Shown: in pieces, positions 4,201 through 44,046 of the stretch
Numbering within the stretch: the first letter of the stretch is position 1
Layout of the letters: each line of letters opens with the position of its first letter
Sequence record: OZ035754.1
DNA length: 44,622 nucleotides
Origin: Kagunavirus BCH953P1
Direction: 5' to 3' (one strand)
Program-made: the position numbers and the translations under genes
Notes under the pieces: model-generated
The model's input: only the letters and a program-made list of their open reading frames with translations
Databases searched by the model: none
Told to the model about the DNA's origin: nothing

Positions 4201-4235
4201 TTCTAAATTCCTTATCTCTCGTTTCGATGTAATGA

Positions 4236-4264
4236 ATAGTACCCTATTATATTGGGGTGCGCAA
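4236..4264 (-). promoter_or_regulatory. sigma70-type promoter P1 (TTGCGC-N17-TACTAT), B-family
   Basis: On minus strand TTGCGCACCCCAATATAATAGGGTACTAT; identical over about 33 nt to the copy at 13781..13809; immediately upstream of the minus ORF 3964..4200. Confidence 0.6.
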
Positions 4265-13765: not shown

Positions 13766-13780
13766 TGTTGGTGTAAGTGA

Positions 13781-13809
13781 ATAGTACCCTATTATATTGG
13801 GGTGCGCAA
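13781..13809 (-). promoter_or_regulatory. sigma70-type promoter P2 (TTGCGC-N17-TACTAT), identical copy of P1
   Basis: Same about 33-nt sequence as at 4236..4264; precedes the minus-strand cassette 13765..11351. Confidence 0.6.
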
Positions 13810-26285: not shown

Positions 26286-26600
26286 TTATAATTCCTTATA
26301 TTGTTGGGGTATGTGCTTACTATAATAGTCTGCTATTAGGGTGTCAACCTGTTTTATAGAGCCAACCACAAAAACATTTGCGCCGCGTTTGCGCATCCGC
26401 TCATGTTCTCGTAGCTGGTGCGGGTCTGGCTTCGTGTTTTCGTCTTTCTTAACCTCGACAAACCATATGATGCCGCCGGGGAGCATTACCAGCAAGTCGG
26501 GGGCGCCGGAGCGCCCCTCGTAGGAAAGTTTACGAACGAGGCCCCCCAGGGCCTCGAATCGGTCTTTCGCGTATTTCTGTACGCGGCCCTCTTTAGTCAT
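26286..26600 (-). CDS. VRR-NUC domain nuclease (PD-(D/E)xK)
   Basis: 104 aa; GAPDLLVM ... FVEVK pattern typical of VRR-NUC. Confidence 0.55.
   Translation of the reverse strand: MTKEGRVQKYAKDRFEALGGLVRKLSYEGRSGAPDLLVMLPGGIIWFVEVKKDENTKPDPHQLREHERMRKRGANVFVVGSIKQVDTLIADYYSKHIPQQYKEL
26319..26347 (-). promoter_or_regulatory. sigma70-type promoter P3 (TTGACA-N17-TATAGT), A-family
   Basis: On minus strand TTGACACCCTAATAGCAGACTATTATAGT; lies in the 3' end of the VRR-NUC gene, upstream of 26030..26284. Confidence 0.55.
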
Positions 26601-29890: not shown

Positions 29891-29919
29891 ACTATAATAG
29901 CTAACTATTCAGGTGTCAA
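29891..29919 (-). promoter_or_regulatory. sigma70-type promoter P4 (TTGACA-N17-TATAGT), A-family
   Basis: On minus strand TTGACACCTGAATAGTTAGCTATTATAGT in the intergenic gap upstream of 29214..29837. Confidence 0.6.
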
Positions 29920-33006: not shown

Positions 33007-33035
33007 ACTATAATAGCGAACTATTCACTTGTCAA
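33007..33035 (-). promoter_or_regulatory. sigma70-type promoter P5 (TTGACA-N17-TATAGT), A-family
   Basis: On minus strand TTGACAAGTGAATAGTTCGCTATTATAGT; perfect -35. Confidence 0.6.
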
Positions 33036-33045
33036 TGGGCTTTTC

Positions 33046-33068
33046 TAAAATAATTAATATGGTACTAT
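33046..33068 (+). promoter_or_regulatory. promoter-like element for the HTH gene (B-family -10 block GGTACTATTCAC without a recognisable -35)
   Basis: TACTAT at 33063..33068 with the same flanks as P1/P2/P6; divergent from P5. Confidence 0.4.
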
Positions 33069-33099
33069 TCACATATCAACTGACTAAGGAGTAATTGAC

Positions 33100-35631: not shown

Positions 35632-35865
35632 TTATTCCAGGTCTTCTAAAGTAGCGGCCATTCCGCGAACTTCAGCAACAGCACTATATTTCCCACCAAC
35701 ATTTTTCACGACACCAGATTTAACCAGCACCTTCAACGACCCTTCAATAATGGCGGAACTATAGTACCTAAAATAACTACGGCGCAAGTCGATAACGCTG
35801 CACGACCCTTTTTTACGTGTTAACGAAACGACTGCCGTGAATACGCGTGACTGGAACTCGGTCAT
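35632..35865 (-). CDS. hypothetical protein (77 aa)
   Basis: Track ORF; C-terminus ends EDLE like two other proteins in this block. Confidence 0.5.
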   Translation of the reverse strand: MTEFQSRVFTAVVSLTRKKGSCSVIDLRRSYFRYYSSAIIEGSLKVLVKSGVVKNVGGKYSAVAEVRGMAATLEDLE

Positions 35866-36032
35866 TTCACATTCTCCTTAATCCACGCTTCCACTTTCTC
35901 CGGGTCAAACGTACCCGGCTGACGGCGGCCCATAATGCGGATACAACAATCCGGGAACTTCCCGCTCTTTAGCCAGTTATTCAGTGTGCGACGAGTAACC
36001 CCGATACGCTCGGCTACTTCATTCTGTGTCAT
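35862..36032 (-). CDS. small HTH DNA-binding protein (AlpA/excisionase-like fold), probable early regulator
   Basis: HTH MTQNEVAERIGVTRRTLNNW; start taken at internal ATG 36032 because the predicted promoter P9 lies at 36066..36093 (track ORF extends to 36065). Confidence 0.5.
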   Translation of the reverse strand: MTQNEVAERIGVTRRTLNNWLKSGKFPDCCIRIMGRRQPGTFDPEKVEAWIKENVK

Positions 36033-36065
36033 TCTCAAACCCTCAGTATCAGTTAACGAAACCAA

Positions 36066-36093
36066 GTATACATTGCGAATAATGGGAAATCAA
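36066..36093 (-). promoter_or_regulatory. candidate sigma70 promoter P9 (TTGATT-N16/17-TATACT) for the minus-strand replication operon
   Basis: Read on minus strand; moderate match. Confidence 0.35.
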
Positions 36094-36182
36094 ACATAAT
36101 CGCACCTATTGACATTATGAAAATCTTCGTTTAAGGTGCTTCTATATCTTAGTTACTTTGATTCCTGTTCACCTTGTAAGAA

Positions 36183-36216
36183 TGTTTAACCCGTGCGTCA
36201 AGCAAAGGGTTAAACA
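36183..36216. promoter_or_regulatory. inverted repeat tgtttaaccc / gggttaaaca (10-bp arms, 14-nt spacer) in the early control region
   Basis: Seen directly. Confidence 0.4.
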
Positions 36217-36370
36217 CAGGCTTACTGAACACGAGAATTATCATAACTTTCCTTCCTTAGTATCTCCGGTTGCCCTGGGCAAGCTATATTCTCATCAACG
36301 GCATATCTCTTAAGTATCTGATTTTCTTAATGTGCCGTAGATTCGCAACCGTAAAAATGTAACCCTTACC

Positions 36371-36394
36371 GGGCGGGCTTAAGGCCCGCCCTTT
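36371..36394 (+). terminator. GC-rich hairpin gggcgggc-ttaag-gcccgccc followed by TTT
   Basis: Seen directly, in intergenic region upstream of P6. Confidence 0.4.
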
Positions 36395-36464
36395 AGTTAC
36401 AAAGTAATAAGAATAAAGGCACGACCCTGCCTGAAGAATCACAACGGCAACGTAACTATTCTCT

Positions 36465-36493
36465 TGCACACCCCAACATAATAGGATACTATT
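36465..36493 (+). promoter_or_regulatory. sigma70-type promoter P6 (TTGCAC-N17-TACTAT), B-family
   Basis: TTGCACACCCCAACATAATAGGATACTAT; near-identical to P1/P2; 25 nt upstream of the first plus-strand early gene. Confidence 0.6.
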
Positions 36494-36517
36494 CACTTAT
36501 CGTAACGAGACAGAGGA

Positions 36518-36712
36518 GTGAGGGTTATGTTTAAGAAGGGTCAGTTGGTGAAGATTTTGGAGACCGGAGAGTTAGCGGTTATCTCATTTATGCACCACAG
36601 AGAATATGAGGTCTATTTTGCTAAATCTTTAACGGAGTCCTATCTCACCGTGCTATACGCGCAAGATATGAAACTCATCGGCAACAATTTTAAATTCAAA
36701 GGGGCGAAGTGA
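36518..36712 (+). CDS. hypothetical early protein (64 aa)
   Basis: Track ORF; SD GGAGTGAGGG. Confidence 0.5.
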   Translation: MRVMFKKGQLVKILETGELAVISFMHHREYEVYFAKSLTESYLTVLYAQDMKLIGNNFKFKGAK

Positions 36713-36912
36713 TGGAAGAATTATTTGAGGAACTGAAACATCATGAGTTCGAGGAGATATATTTTGTAGCTGGACGCTACGAGGCGCATTTAGTGGACGG
36801 GATTACACTTATTACGGTGGATAGCCTGCAAATGTTAAATAGCTTACGTGCGCTACGAACGGCATCGAATCATGATGCTCGTGCCGACGACTCTGAGGGA
36901 GGTTGCCGTTGA
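36712..36912 (+). CDS. hypothetical early protein (66 aa)
   Basis: Track ORF 36709..36912, start set at ATG overlapping upstream stop. Confidence 0.45.
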   Translation: MEELFEELKHHEFEEIYFVAGRYEAHLVDGITLITVDSLQMLNSLRALRTASNHDARADDSEGGCR

Positions 36913-37169
36913 TGAATAATACTGAACTGAAAACAGTAGCGGAATATAACCGTAAAATACGGGTCATGCGTCGTGGTGCGGGGCTGGAGCAGTTCTATAA
37001 CATGTGGCGCATTGCGACGCGCGACCCTGAGTTTCTTCAGACAGGTTATTATTCCATTAAAGGCATTATCCCGATTCGTGCACGTAAGGATTATGGTTGG
37101 GTTCGTGAGACCCCTAATCTTTTGTGGTGCTGGTATTGTGGTGAATTCTGGGTAAGGGTTAAGGACTGA
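36912..37169 (+). CDS. hypothetical early protein (85 aa)
   Basis: Track ORF 36903..37169, start set at ATG in TGATG overlap. Confidence 0.45.
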   Translation: MNNTELKTVAEYNRKIRVMRRGAGLEQFYNMWRIATRDPEFLQTGYYSIKGIIPIRARKDYGWVRETPNLLWCWYCGEFWVRVKD

Positions 37170-37240
37170 GTTATGAATAATTACCCGTTTATTTTAATCG
37201 TCAGCGTCGTTTATGTGGCGCACGTGTTGTGGGGTTTGGT

Positions 37241-37441
37241 ATGAGCAAGTGGATTAAGTGTAGTGAGCGGATGCCGCGCTGCGAGCCGGGTAGGTGGTCA
37301 AAAGATGTTATTGCACTAAGTGATACTGGGGAGGTGTTTCGTCTGGCCTGTCAAGGTGAATACTGGCAAAGAACGTCAGCGTTCGTTGAATCAGGTTCAG
37401 AAAAAGTGGTTGCATGGATGCCGTTCCCTGATGAGGACTAA
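37241..37441 (+). CDS. DUF551-like protein (copy 1)
   Basis: MSKWIKCSERMP...W..WMPFP pattern typical of the DUF551 phage family; paralog at 37592..37777. Confidence 0.55.
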   Translation: MSKWIKCSERMPRCEPGRWSKDVIALSDTGEVFRLACQGEYWQRTSAFVESGSEKVVAWMPFPDED

Positions 37442-37444
37442 GTT

Positions 37445-37588
37445 ATGAGAGAAGCATTTGAACGGTGGGCCGTCATCGAGGGTCTGCCGGTCAACAAGGG
37501 TTCAAAGAAAGAGTACCTGAACGTTAAGACCCGTCTCGCGTGGCGGGCGTGGAGAGCTGGTGTGCAAGCGGTTATGGACCGGGGGTGA
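37445..37588 (+). CDS. hypothetical small protein (47 aa)
   Basis: Read from sequence, fills the gap between the two DUF551 genes. Confidence 0.3.
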   Translation: MREAFERWAVIEGLPVNKGSKKEYLNVKTRLAWRAWRAGVQAVMDRG

Positions 37589-37591
37589 GAT

Positions 37592-37777
37592 ATGGGCGAG
37601 TGGATTATGTGTAGTGAACGGATGCCGGAGCCTTATGAATACGTTCTTGTAACTGATTGTTTTGTTGGCTGTGAGGTTATGCGTGTTAATTCAGATGGCT
37701 ACTGGGGGCCCGCAAAGAGTTTATATCACGGTGATATCACCCACTGGATGCCATTACCGGAGCCGCCAGAAGCGTGA
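37592..37777 (+). CDS. DUF551-like protein (copy 2)
   Basis: EWIMCSERMPEPYEYVLV...HWMPLPEPP. Confidence 0.55.
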   Translation: MGEWIMCSERMPEPYEYVLVTDCFVGCEVMRVNSDGYWGPAKSLYHGDITHWMPLPEPPEA

Positions 37778-37818
37778 TGTTATATTGTAACAATAGCTTG
37801 GGATTTTACTGAGTGACT

Positions 37819-37840
37819 TACGCTGCTGTGCAGCAGCGTA
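37819..37840. repeat. near-perfect palindrome TACGCTGCTG-tg-CAGCAGCGTA
   Basis: 10-bp perfect arms seen directly in a 227-bp intergenic region. Confidence 0.6.
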
Positions 37841-37944
37841 CAACTTTAACTTAGTGTCGTCAAAAGGTGACACTTTTCACCAAACGCAACAATCGAGGCG
37901 ACTATTGCAGGAGATGCAACAATACAAACACCAATAAAATTTAC

Positions 37945-37973
37945 TTGCACACTGAGATAGAATAGGCTACTGT
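37945..37973 (+). promoter_or_regulatory. sigma70-type promoter P7 (TTGCAC-N17-TACTGT), B-family
   Basis: TTGCACACTGAGATAGAATAGGCTACTGT followed by TCATTTACAC as in the other B-family copies. Confidence 0.5.
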
Positions 37974-38004
37974 TCATTTACACAAACGAGAGGAGAGATA
38001 GAAG

Positions 38005-38154
38005 ATGGTTACTTTGATGGTTATGGAGTTTGAAAACAGCGTAGCAACTTACCGTGAGATGACTATGGTGCAGGCGTATCACCTGGCATCAAACGGCAAC
38101 TTCTACAAGGCTCAAATCATCAACGAGTTCGGGGTAATTGACTATGAATTTTAA
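38005..38154 (+). CDS. hypothetical small protein (49 aa)
   Basis: Read from sequence; SD GAGGAGAG. Confidence 0.35.
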   Translation: MVTLMVMEFENSVATYREMTMVQAYHLASNGNFYKAQIINEFGVIDYEF

Positions 38155-38416
38155 CAGCTACACCGTTACCGTTGATTTTGAGGGGCTGGAGTTGCCCCTC
38201 CCCAACAACTACCGATATGTCACGCGCGACCGTAACGGGTTTATCCAGGGGTGGAGGAACAAACCGACAGATACTGAGTTCGGGATGTCGGGCGGCGAAG
38301 AGTTGCCGATCACTTTCGGGCATCAGAGTAGCAACGAAGAGCTTAAAACTGTGATTCGTAAGTATCGCCGCCGCGGTAACACTGGGCTTATAGCAATAAC
38401 AGGTGCTGTTGAATAG
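38144..38416 (+). CDS. hypothetical protein (90 aa)
   Basis: Track ORF 38138..38416; start at ATG 38144. Confidence 0.5.
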   Translation: MNFNSYTVTVDFEGLELPLPNNYRYVTRDRNGFIQGWRNKPTDTEFGMSGGEELPITFGHQSSNEELKTVIRKYRRRGNTGLIAITGAVE

Positions 38417-44012: not shown

Positions 44013-44020
44013 CAACACCA

Positions 44021-44046
44021 AAAGCCCTCCGTAGAGGGCTTTTCTG
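44021..44046 (+). terminator. rho-independent terminator (aagccctc-cgta-gagggctt then ttctgt)
   Basis: Seen directly, closes the early plus-strand block before the terminase genes. Confidence 0.55.

Follow-up and report, generated by a model that had tools for sequence, protein, structure and literature searches.

A lambdoid moron, in the concept of Hendrix and Juhala, is preceded by a promoter of its own and followed by a terminator of its own. The locus analyzed here is the gap at 37778-38004 of sequence record OZ035754.1 (Kagunavirus BCH953P1); the whole 44,622-nt stretch of this record is called the window below, and it is a complete phage genome of ~44.6 kb belonging to the genus Kagunavirus, subfamily Guernseyvirinae. 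Like a moron, the locus has a small accessory gene that is present or absent at a fixed intergenic position. Unlike in a moron, the predicted terminator lies upstream of the gene slot and the next operon's promoter downstream of it, and no promoter for the slot gene was found; because the order of terminator and promoter around the gene is reversed, we do not regard the locus as a moron.

The promoter-early stem-loops (PeSLs) of T4-like phages (Arbiol et al. 2010; Comeau et al. 2014) combine a stem-loop terminator, a sigma-70-type promoter, and a Shine-Dalgarno sequence with its ATG in composite intergenic elements that flank small orphan genes, non-essential and with functions not known, and they mediate gene insertion, deletion, and replacement via conserved linker sequence (PMC2839356, PMC4122927). 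Many recombining copies of these elements are found in each genome. The window site is similar to a PeSL in that a stem-loop and an early promoter surround variable open reading frames, with three unrelated genes, gene remnants, and an empty state all represented among its relatives. In contrast to the PeSLs, the hairpin block of the window is single-copy and only its promoter core is repeated, there is no sequence similarity between the two, and the variable gene lies inside the element rather than between two copies of it. The window site is closest to the PeSLs as an evolutionary device, but it is not a member of the PeSL family.

The stem-loop itself is like the intrinsic terminators of enterobacteria and their phages, being a GC-rich 9-bp stem with a tetraloop on the transcribed strand at the 3' end of an operon. 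It departs from the standard intrinsic terminator in that the U-tract is replaced in the window by a second hairpin and a short U run, and in that the stem sequence itself, and not the pairing alone, is invariant across genera. For Kagunavirus genomes, the genome papers offer only PHIRE and ARNold counts, and the one RNA-seq study of a Kagunavirus (PMC12645636) gives gene-level time courses only, without transcript boundaries. The paper on Kagunavirus fBC-Eco01 (PMC9825357) reports a PHIRE "phage promoter" motif, tgAATAGTa-ccTATTat-T, and ascribes it to a phage RNA polymerase. The promoter that we call P7 carries this motif as AATAGGCTACTGTT, with one mismatch, but every window copy of the motif sits inside a sigma-70-like -35/-10 frame, and thus the host polymerase is a likelier user than a phage RNA polymerase.

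Our analysis describes the gap as an ordinary boundary of two early operons, consisting of a terminator-type hairpin, an empty gene slot, and the promoter of the next operon. The site is probably a composite junction of two rightward early transcription units, in which a terminator or attenuator, the empty slot, and P7 are combined. The initial annotation had taken the gap for a site of transcriptional punctuation with a real promoter, and this general view is borne out.

Genome context and conservation of the gap

Genes to the left of ~36100 in the window are encoded on the minus strand, and plus-strand genes extend from 36518 on. The promoter core of the first rightward early operon is found at 36480-36493, and the plus-strand open reading frames that occupy 36518-37777 overlap or abut, in agreement with the tight early block described initially. 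The last gene of this operon (37592-37777, plus strand) encodes a 61-aa protein with a match to Pfam DUF551 (E=9e-15), and the first gene of the next operon is a DUF7170 gene (38005-38154, plus strand). The interval between these two open reading frames, 37778-38004, is non-coding and exactly 227 bp long, as first described. No conserved coding frame continues through the gap, because two types of hairpin tail found among the relatives (types a and b, below) differ by 10-11 nt. A 37-aa "hypothetical protein", Bas71_0061, has been annotated across the hairpin in a BASEL-collection record; its open reading frame is not conserved and we reject it.

The 1-kb stretch around the gap gave a match of 99.8% identity to Kagunavirus BCH953P1 and has matches in 357 phage records, nearly all of which are Escherichia Kagunavirus or Salmonella Jerseyvirus (Guernseyvirinae), and a sensitive BLAST search with the gap itself recovered homologs in 445 phage records of Kagunavirus and Jerseyvirus. 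Approximately 300 Salmonella Jerseyvirus genomes are among these, with ~75-80% identity over 37770-37923; in the genes that they have in common, the window phage and Jerseyvirus genomes show a background identity of 68-86%. The set used for comparison comprises 46 loci, made up of 14 annotated GenBank loci and of IMG/VR loci from two exact-motif scans that returned 25 and 31 stretches, mostly overlapping.

A tRNA/tmRNA scan identified no candidates. Rfam searches returned no match at gathering score over the whole window and no match at E<=10 inside the gap, and the search of 37600-38200 gave just two matches below threshold (E 0.7 and 1.7), both of them outside the gap. Folding the whole gap as RNA on both strands gave z-scores of only -1.9 and -2.8, and beyond two hairpins the structures in these folds are not conserved.

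A subfamily-wide hairpin with two alternative tails

Hairpin 1 is located at 37819-37840 on the plus strand. As DNA it is the palindrome TACGCTGCTG-tg-CAGCAGCGTA, which had been described as near-perfect; the palindrome is real, but its two 10-nt arms are 100% complementary, with 2 nt between them. As RNA it forms a 9-bp stem, TACGCTGCT/AGCAGCGTA, closed by the loop GTGC, with a folding energy of -13.2 kcal/mol. The 44.6-kb window contains no more than two perfect inverted repeats whose arms reach 9 bp or more across a spacer of 8 nt or less (37819-37840 and 44020-44043). Dinucleotide shuffles contain 1.5 +/- 1.1 repeats when the arms must reach 9 bp and 0.3 +/- 0.5 when they must reach 10 bp. 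Taken alone, the palindrome is modestly above chance, and it is its conservation in ~445 phage records that provides the decisive evidence.

The stem of hairpin 1 is identical in 46/46 loci. Its 18 positions and at least the 9 bases preceding them (..TGAGTGACT) never change, not even to G.U, unlike the loop, the tail, and block C (below), which all carry genus-specific differences. No compensatory changes are available in the stem, as every stem pair is invariant. The stem is equally constant in the 77 records with a type-b tail, where hairpin 1 has no U-tract. This invariance of the stem and its 5' bases across two genera is beyond what a purely structural terminator role predicts.

The loop reads ACAC in 25 loci, GAGT in 16, GTGT in two, ACTC in two, and GTGC in the window only. 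ACAC and GTGT are reverse complements of one another, as are GAGT and ACTC, and the loop has therefore been inverted at least twice; inversions of this kind are a known signature of template switching at palindromes. The GTGC loop of the window is a single T>C step away from GTGT. This step adds a tenth pair to the original nine, and the 10-bp palindrome has thus arisen from the conserved 9-bp/4-nt hairpin.

Immediately upstream lies block A (CAATAGCTTGGGATTTTACTGAGTGACT; 37791-37818, plus strand), a conserved non-coding segment of which the last 9-18 nt are invariant among relatives. The layout in the aligned loci is ..CAATAG-TT-GGATTTTACTGAGTGACT, followed by TACGCTGCT-NNNN-AGCAGCGTA. The 5' part of block A looks like a degenerate version of the promoter core AATAG-N4-CTATT, and this core is intact in phages AMO_3701M and phiSD1. 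Block A is single-copy in the window, and in IMG/VR its motif occurs only in Guernseyvirinae-type contigs of 41-45 kb. A search of 596 Gb of bacterial genomes with hairpin 1 gave 15 matches, which is about the number expected by chance by our own estimate; 13 of these are in unrelated taxa and two in mis-binned Guernseyvirinae phage contigs.

The sequence 3' of hairpin 1 is dimorphic, and each of the two tail types is present in both genera. In ~351 records (type a), hairpin 1 is directly followed by the T-rich sequence TCATTTTTCTCATTTTTGTTCTA or CCATTTTTGTTAATATTTTTCTA. Scored with d'Aubenton-Carafa T-weighting, the tail of type-a relatives (TCATTTTTCTCATTT / TCATTTTTCTCATTTTT) reaches 2.29 and contains a U-tract, and from its sequence the type-a module would be a textbook intrinsic terminator. 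One GenBank record, MK931438 (phage Schulenburg), annotates the orthologous hairpin as "terminator". A terminator, one of several roles first suggested for the gap, is the best-supported reading of the palindrome, but the proposed dependence on a factor is mostly not upheld, as the ~350 relatives with a U-tract and the MK931438 annotation point to an intrinsic terminator or attenuator.

The type-b cassette is carried by 77 records, including the window, K1G, and Salmonella phage sidste, and has the form CA(A/C)CTTTA(A/G)(C/A)TT, a second hairpin, and TTT(T)CAC; this second hairpin is missing from ~80% of relatives. In the window the cassette spans 37841-37877 (plus strand) and consists of the linker CAACTTTAACTT, hairpin 2 at 37853-37874, and a T run at 37874-37877, which together replace the T-rich tail. 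Hairpin 2 corresponds to the AGTGTC...GACACT repeat reported initially, which is real and longer than first given (AGTGTCGTC-AAAA-GGTGACACT, 37853-37874) and is kept in all cassette carriers. As RNA it has nine pairs including a G.U (-8.0 kcal/mol), a C>T change in the window having converted a G-C pair to G.U; RNA pairing is retained, and the stem is weakened from -12.8 to -8.0 kcal/mol. The further repeat GGTGA...TCACC (37866-37870 / 37877-37881) is indeed present, but only in the lineage of the window's phage, with relatives reading GGCGA or AGCGA, and it is a by-product because a single C>T change made it. The consensus fold contains hairpin 1 as well as hairpin 2.

The tail after hairpin 1 in the window (CAACTTTAA) has a T-score of 0.36, equal to the median of random 15-mers, and contains no U-tract, while the tail after hairpin 2, TTTT then CACC (TTTCACC), scores 2.44, at the 97th percentile of window 15-mers and on a par with the type-a tail. 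A consensus terminator scan makes no call at the site in the window. The type-b cassette with hairpin 2 is a probable weak intrinsic terminator, and termination in the window phage may be inefficient, with four U's and a weakened stem at hairpin 2 and no U-tract at hairpin 1. An rrn-boxA-like CUUUAAC after hairpin 1 was considered and dropped, as the Salmonella type-b copies read CUUUAGA and the element is not conserved.

The accessory-gene slot and promoter P7

Block C (TTCACCAAACGCAACAATCGAAGCGACTATTGCAGGAGATGCAACAAT; 37876-37924, plus strand) is the orphan translation-initiation region of an accessory-gene slot, with a mean column identity of 93% among 31 distinct sequences. It contains the direct repeats GCAACAAT at 37886-37893 and 37916-37923, 30 bp apart (seven copies in the window vs 1.9 expected), and a Shine-Dalgarno sequence, AGGAGA, at 37909-37914. 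In most relatives block C ends in an ATG located 7 nt after AGGAGA, which opens a gene of 54-76 aa; the ancestral start codon position in the window, 37922-37924, reads ATA. The occupants of the slot in relatives are unrelated and comprise a 57-aa DUF7438/phrog_653 gene (in K1G, phiSD1, and many others), a phrog_9384 gene of 54-56 aa, and a 76-aa open reading frame (AMO_3701M).

In relatives, these slot genes have GCAGGAGATGCAACAATG as their boundary on the left and AACACCAATAA-P7 as that on the right, and all three unrelated genes terminate in AACACCAATAA, directly before promoter P7. The right boundary of the slot in the window, CAAACACCAATAA (37925-37937, plus strand), preserves the last codons of the occupants (..K/T-H-Q-stop), including a relic TAA stop at 37935-37937. 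In the window and in 11 others of the 46 loci, one boundary runs straight into the other (..GCAACAAT-A-CAAACACCAATAA..), with an ATA start. The empty junction has matches over >=80% of its length in up to 96 phage records, a figure that includes some occupied alleles joined from two BLAST pieces. Independent decay products are found in Salmonella phages, as MKQDKLIV.. in TUMS_E19 and sidste and as a truncated remnant in LSPA1.

In the window phage the slot stands empty: its ATG has become ATA, the gene is absent, and a small accessory gene has been lost. The gap is unusually long because this gene is missing and not because extra regulatory sites are present. An operator cluster had been proposed as the cause of the gap length; a lost accessory gene, whose ribosome binding site and stop boundary remain, takes its place. 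Both tail types occur with both slot states, so that all four combinations exist, which indicates recombination within short conserved blocks.

A scan of five representative variants detected no acceptable sigma-70 promoter between hairpin 1 and the slot ATG. The best candidate, TTCACC-18-(G/A)ACTAT, has 7/12 matches and non-optimal spacing, and the second position of its "-10", normally A, is G in several phages. A slot gene with no promoter of its own would be expressed mainly by read-through, and for this reason we infer that the upstream module is best termed a terminator/attenuator.

Candidate RNA structures in block C were not retained. For both a 10-bp helix (GCAACAATCG/CGACTATTGC) and a helix that places the Shine-Dalgarno sequence in its loop (TTGCA/TGCAA), covariation was not beyond that of shuffled controls, and RNAalifold on block C retained no more than a helix of 3 bp in which a single pair covaries (C-G/U-A), too little to support a structure. 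Those positions of the 10-bp helix that are not Watson-Crick pairs would be G.U when read on the minus strand, but no minus-strand promoter or gene was found that would make this meaningful.

Promoter P7 (37945-37973, plus strand) has a -35 element, TTGCAC, at 37945-37950, a 17-bp spacer, and a -10 element, TACTGT, at 37968-37973. It had been assigned to a promoter family in the initial annotation and is real as a member of such a family, TTACTTGCAC-N12-TAGGCTAC having three matches vs 0.04 expected. The palindromic core of the family, found with one mismatch at 37961-37974, lies over the P7 -10, and the core AATAG-N4-CTATT has 11 matches at up to one mismatch vs 1.1 expected. Sister copies of P7, TTGC(A/G)C-17-TACTAT, are located upstream of genes at 4235(-), 13780(-), and 36480(+), and the leader AACGAGAGGAGAG follows all of them. 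The replication genes on the minus strand have the same core in the opposite orientation, within very strong TTGACA-17-TATAGT promoters. The palindromic promoter core may be an operator.

P7 is kept at the same place in relatives, mostly with the -10 sequence TACTAT, from which the TACTGT of the window is a single change. Its hexamers match the consensus weakly (6/12), and it is predicted to act as a weak sigma-70-type promoter with a transcription start near 37980. The 5' untranslated region that follows (..TTTACACAAACGAGAGGAGAG..; 37975-38007, plus strand) is typical of the promoter family, with a Shine-Dalgarno sequence, GAGGAG, at 37990-37995 ahead of the DUF7170 ATG at 38005-38007.

Transcription across the gap and competing interpretations

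In the mechanism that we propose, host RNA polymerase would start at the family promoter at ~36464-36492, transcribe the small genes of 36518-37777, and then reach the subfamily-wide stem-loop at 37819-37840, which is directly followed by a U-tract in most relatives. Termination in the window phage would probably be partial and occur mainly after hairpin 2 (37853-37874) and its UUUU. The module would act as an attenuator, a role suggested because the next gene in relatives has no promoter of its own. The segment 37876-37937 is vestigial in this phage, being the conserved ribosome binding site, start, and stop boundary of a hypervariable slot for accessory genes that is empty here, and P7 (37945-37973) would re-initiate transcription for the operon starting at 38005. 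The position of the hairpin module, after the last gene of the 36518-37777 block and before a promoter, fits the end of a transcription unit. The arrangement of these parts, their conservation, the two types of tail, the unoccupied slot, and the family membership of P7 can be read directly from the aligned records, and from them we would predict termination, its efficiency, and the activity of the promoter.

An additional or different role can be envisioned for 37795-37840, the ~45 nt that comprise ..GATTTTACTGAGTGACT and the palindrome. This segment might be a sequence-specific element conserved Guernseyvirinae-wide, either bound by a protein as DNA or as RNA or forming the body of a 3' UTR-derived riboregulator, or it might be a linker for cassette exchange, suggestions that we rate as rather unlikely. 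As a linker, it could serve as the fixed left-hand boundary, and block C and P7 would provide the remaining anchors.

Considered more narrowly, the palindrome and its invariant 5' bases may form a double-stranded DNA site for a phage protein, as an operator or otherwise, with terminator activity being secondary. The arms are a perfect and invariant dyad, and the freedom of the central 4 bp to vary, and even to be inverted, would be tolerable to a dimer that contacts the arms. The stem also remains unchanged in the 77 records without a U-tract, and candidate binders are available in the small HTH proteins encoded at 35632-36065 and in an HTH_17 protein among the nearby genes. However, the palindrome has no second copy in the genome at up to three mismatches and overlaps no promoter on either strand, its equally invariant flank is asymmetric, and a canonical U-tract directly follows it in ~350 relatives, all of which leads us to consider such a site unlikely. 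One promoter-like match on the minus strand, 37832>37803 (TGCACA-18-TAAAAT), was rejected, as it takes its -35 from the variable loop and lacks conservation.

Rho-dependent termination could complement the intrinsic hairpins if 37878-37940, which is A/C-rich, G-poor, and left untranslated by the loss of the slot gene, were a Rho-utilization site. In the 100-nt segments 37800-37899 and 37850-37949, C is at least as frequent as G, with a GC skew of 0 to -0.15 and 40-46% GC; CAA/ACA runs can be read in the A/C-rich stretch, which the ATG to ATA change leaves untranslated, and the intrinsic signals in the window phage are weak. The untranslated stretch before P7 is only ~60-100 nt, however, and relatives with an occupied slot translate the same sequence from 37922 on, making a contribution by Rho quite doubtful.

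The layout of the block also brings to mind the Hfq-binding module of enterobacterial sRNAs, in which a U-rich stretch, a hairpin, and a U-tail follow one another. The invariant block and hairpin could be viewed as the 3' end of a functional RNA. This might be an sRNA that comes from the 3' UTR of the upstream operon, or an element for stability or chaperone binding; GGAUUUUACUGAGUGACU would then be a single-stranded seed beside a terminator hairpin. Two genera share the single-stranded segment 5' of the hairpin without any change, and their loops, tails, and neighboring genes diverge, which would suit such an RNA. Against this, it has no Rfam family, no promoter of its own was found, and no covariation is seen; no complementary target of at least 15/18 nt is present in the window, no match of ~20 nt or more, as a host homolog or a long antisense target, was found in 5,426 E. 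coli genomes, and hairpin 1 of type b has no U-tail. We consider a functional RNA very unlikely.

A replication origin or a processive-antitermination (nut/put-like) site, suggested by the long non-coding gap, its several inverted and direct repeats, the two copies of GCAACAAT, and an order of genes, linear element plus hairpin, and terminator that superficially recalls lambda cro-nutR-tR1, is highly improbable: the region, at 37-46% GC, has no DnaA boxes or TTWTNCACA matches, no iterons or tandem repeats, and no strongly AT-rich stretch, and the GC skew switches at ~36450, where the divergent promoters are located; boxB-type recognition needs loop bases, but the loop of hairpin 1 varies freely and is even inverted between phages, the boxA consensus CGCTCTTA is absent on reading the sequence, and a put-like two-stem RNA is not conserved, given the absence of hairpin 2 from most relatives. 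The origin and the antiterminator offered in the initial annotation are for these reasons set aside in favor of the operon junction.

In conclusion, for purposes of annotation the gap can be read as the place where the first rightward early operon ends, followed by an accessory slot without a gene and the start of the next operon. The BASEL record's 37-aa protein, which spans the hairpin, serves as a caution against open reading frame calls in this gap. Side results of modest interest are the cassette slot, the two alternative tails, the inverted loops, and the constancy of the stem. A search for a phage-specific RNA- or DNA-binding factor would have an inexpensive target in the invariant bases of the hairpin and just 5' of it, and the slot would be a natural insertion site for payload genes in the engineering of Guernseyvirinae phages. 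Hundreds of genomes carry the locus, with three or more unrelated occupants, several losses that arose independently, and two alternative terminator tails, and it offers a compact natural case of cassettes being exchanged at regulatory linkers that are conserved, in a subfamily of siphoviruses that is used in phage therapy.

Signatures of template switching at the terminator hairpin, and other palindromes in the genome

Comparison of the hairpin loop (window 37828-37831) with the orthologous loops in the relatives' phage loci (L001-L045) shows that it is inverted between phages, with ACAC exchanged for GTGT and GAGT for ACTC. In the window the loop has been "corrected" from GTGT to GTGC, with a longer palindrome as the result. 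As read from the sequences, these inversions and the GTGT to GTGC change are signatures of template switching at the palindrome. A similar swap of AATAG and CTATT is found just 5' of block A, the segment directly 5' of the hairpin (CAATAGTTT vs CAACTATTT).

The sole other perfect palindrome with 10-bp arms in the genome, AAAAGCCCTC-CGTA-GAGGGCTTTT at 44020-44043, is shaped like an intrinsic terminator that works in both directions. A strong plus-strand hairpin, GGGCGGGCT-TAA-GGCCCGCCC followed by TTTAGTT (36371-36391), is located upstream of the rightward promoter within the divergent intergenic region 36066-36517, a 450-bp segment of 33-45% GC at the GC-skew switch. For a regulatory hub, an origin or a small RNA, this region is a stronger candidate than the 227-bp gap itself.

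Sequences flanking the hairpin and records of the orthologous loci

In alignment A1, which covers the orphan ribosome-binding site and start region of the accessory-gene slot (block C), column 10 (window 37885) covaries with column 25 (window 37900): the pair is C-G in 18 sequences, U-A in 10 and U-G in two, and never C-A. The states track genus, and the helix that can be drawn around the two columns is only 3 bp (CGC/GCG). In some relatives (L009, L025), three tandem copies of the 12-nt unit GGTGTAACAGGT, encoding TGGV repeats, form the 3' end of the gene that precedes the hairpin, and this repeat extends into the conserved block.

In Bas71 (PQ850615), the annotated 37-aa "hypothetical protein" Bas71_0061 (544-657 of the compared locus L003) spans both the terminator hairpin and the unoccupied gene slot; this call is probably spurious, as relatives that carry the alternative tail 3' of the hairpin do not keep its reading frame. 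The complete Guernseyvirinae terminator block is also present in two contigs filed as bacterial, JAEWLW010000073.1 ("Bacillota MAG"; L054) and NZ_JACVEL010000022.1 (Taishania pollutisoli; L058), both of which are probably of phage origin and either were mis-binned into these assemblies or contaminate them. Position 1 of NC_073314.1 (fEg-Eco19) corresponds to window 37877, within the studied region, and several other records begin 0.2-1.5 kb from it; these starts are probably arbitrary linearisation points.

Promoters with a shared palindromic core

The core AATAG-N4-CTATT occurs in the window at 4235-4248, 13780-13793, 26324-26337, 29896-29909, 33012-33025, 33056-33069, 36480-36493 and 37961-37974, with weaker copies at 2790, 4326 and 41478. 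A 32-nt exact direct repeat, TGAATAGTACCCTATTATATTGGGGTGCGCAA (4233-4264 and 13778-13809), yields a pair of identical promoters on the minus strand, separated by 9.5 kb. Two promoter classes contain the core, in opposite orientations: a strong class (TTGACA-17-TATAGT), serving the minus-strand replication genes, carries it inside the spacer, and in a weak class (TTGCRC-17-TACTAT) it overlies the -10 element. The motif has been termed a "phage RNA polymerase promoter" (PMC9825357), a label that seems doubtful because sigma-70 frames surround every copy. The core has the look of an operator, common to these promoters, to which a dimeric phage regulator would bind.
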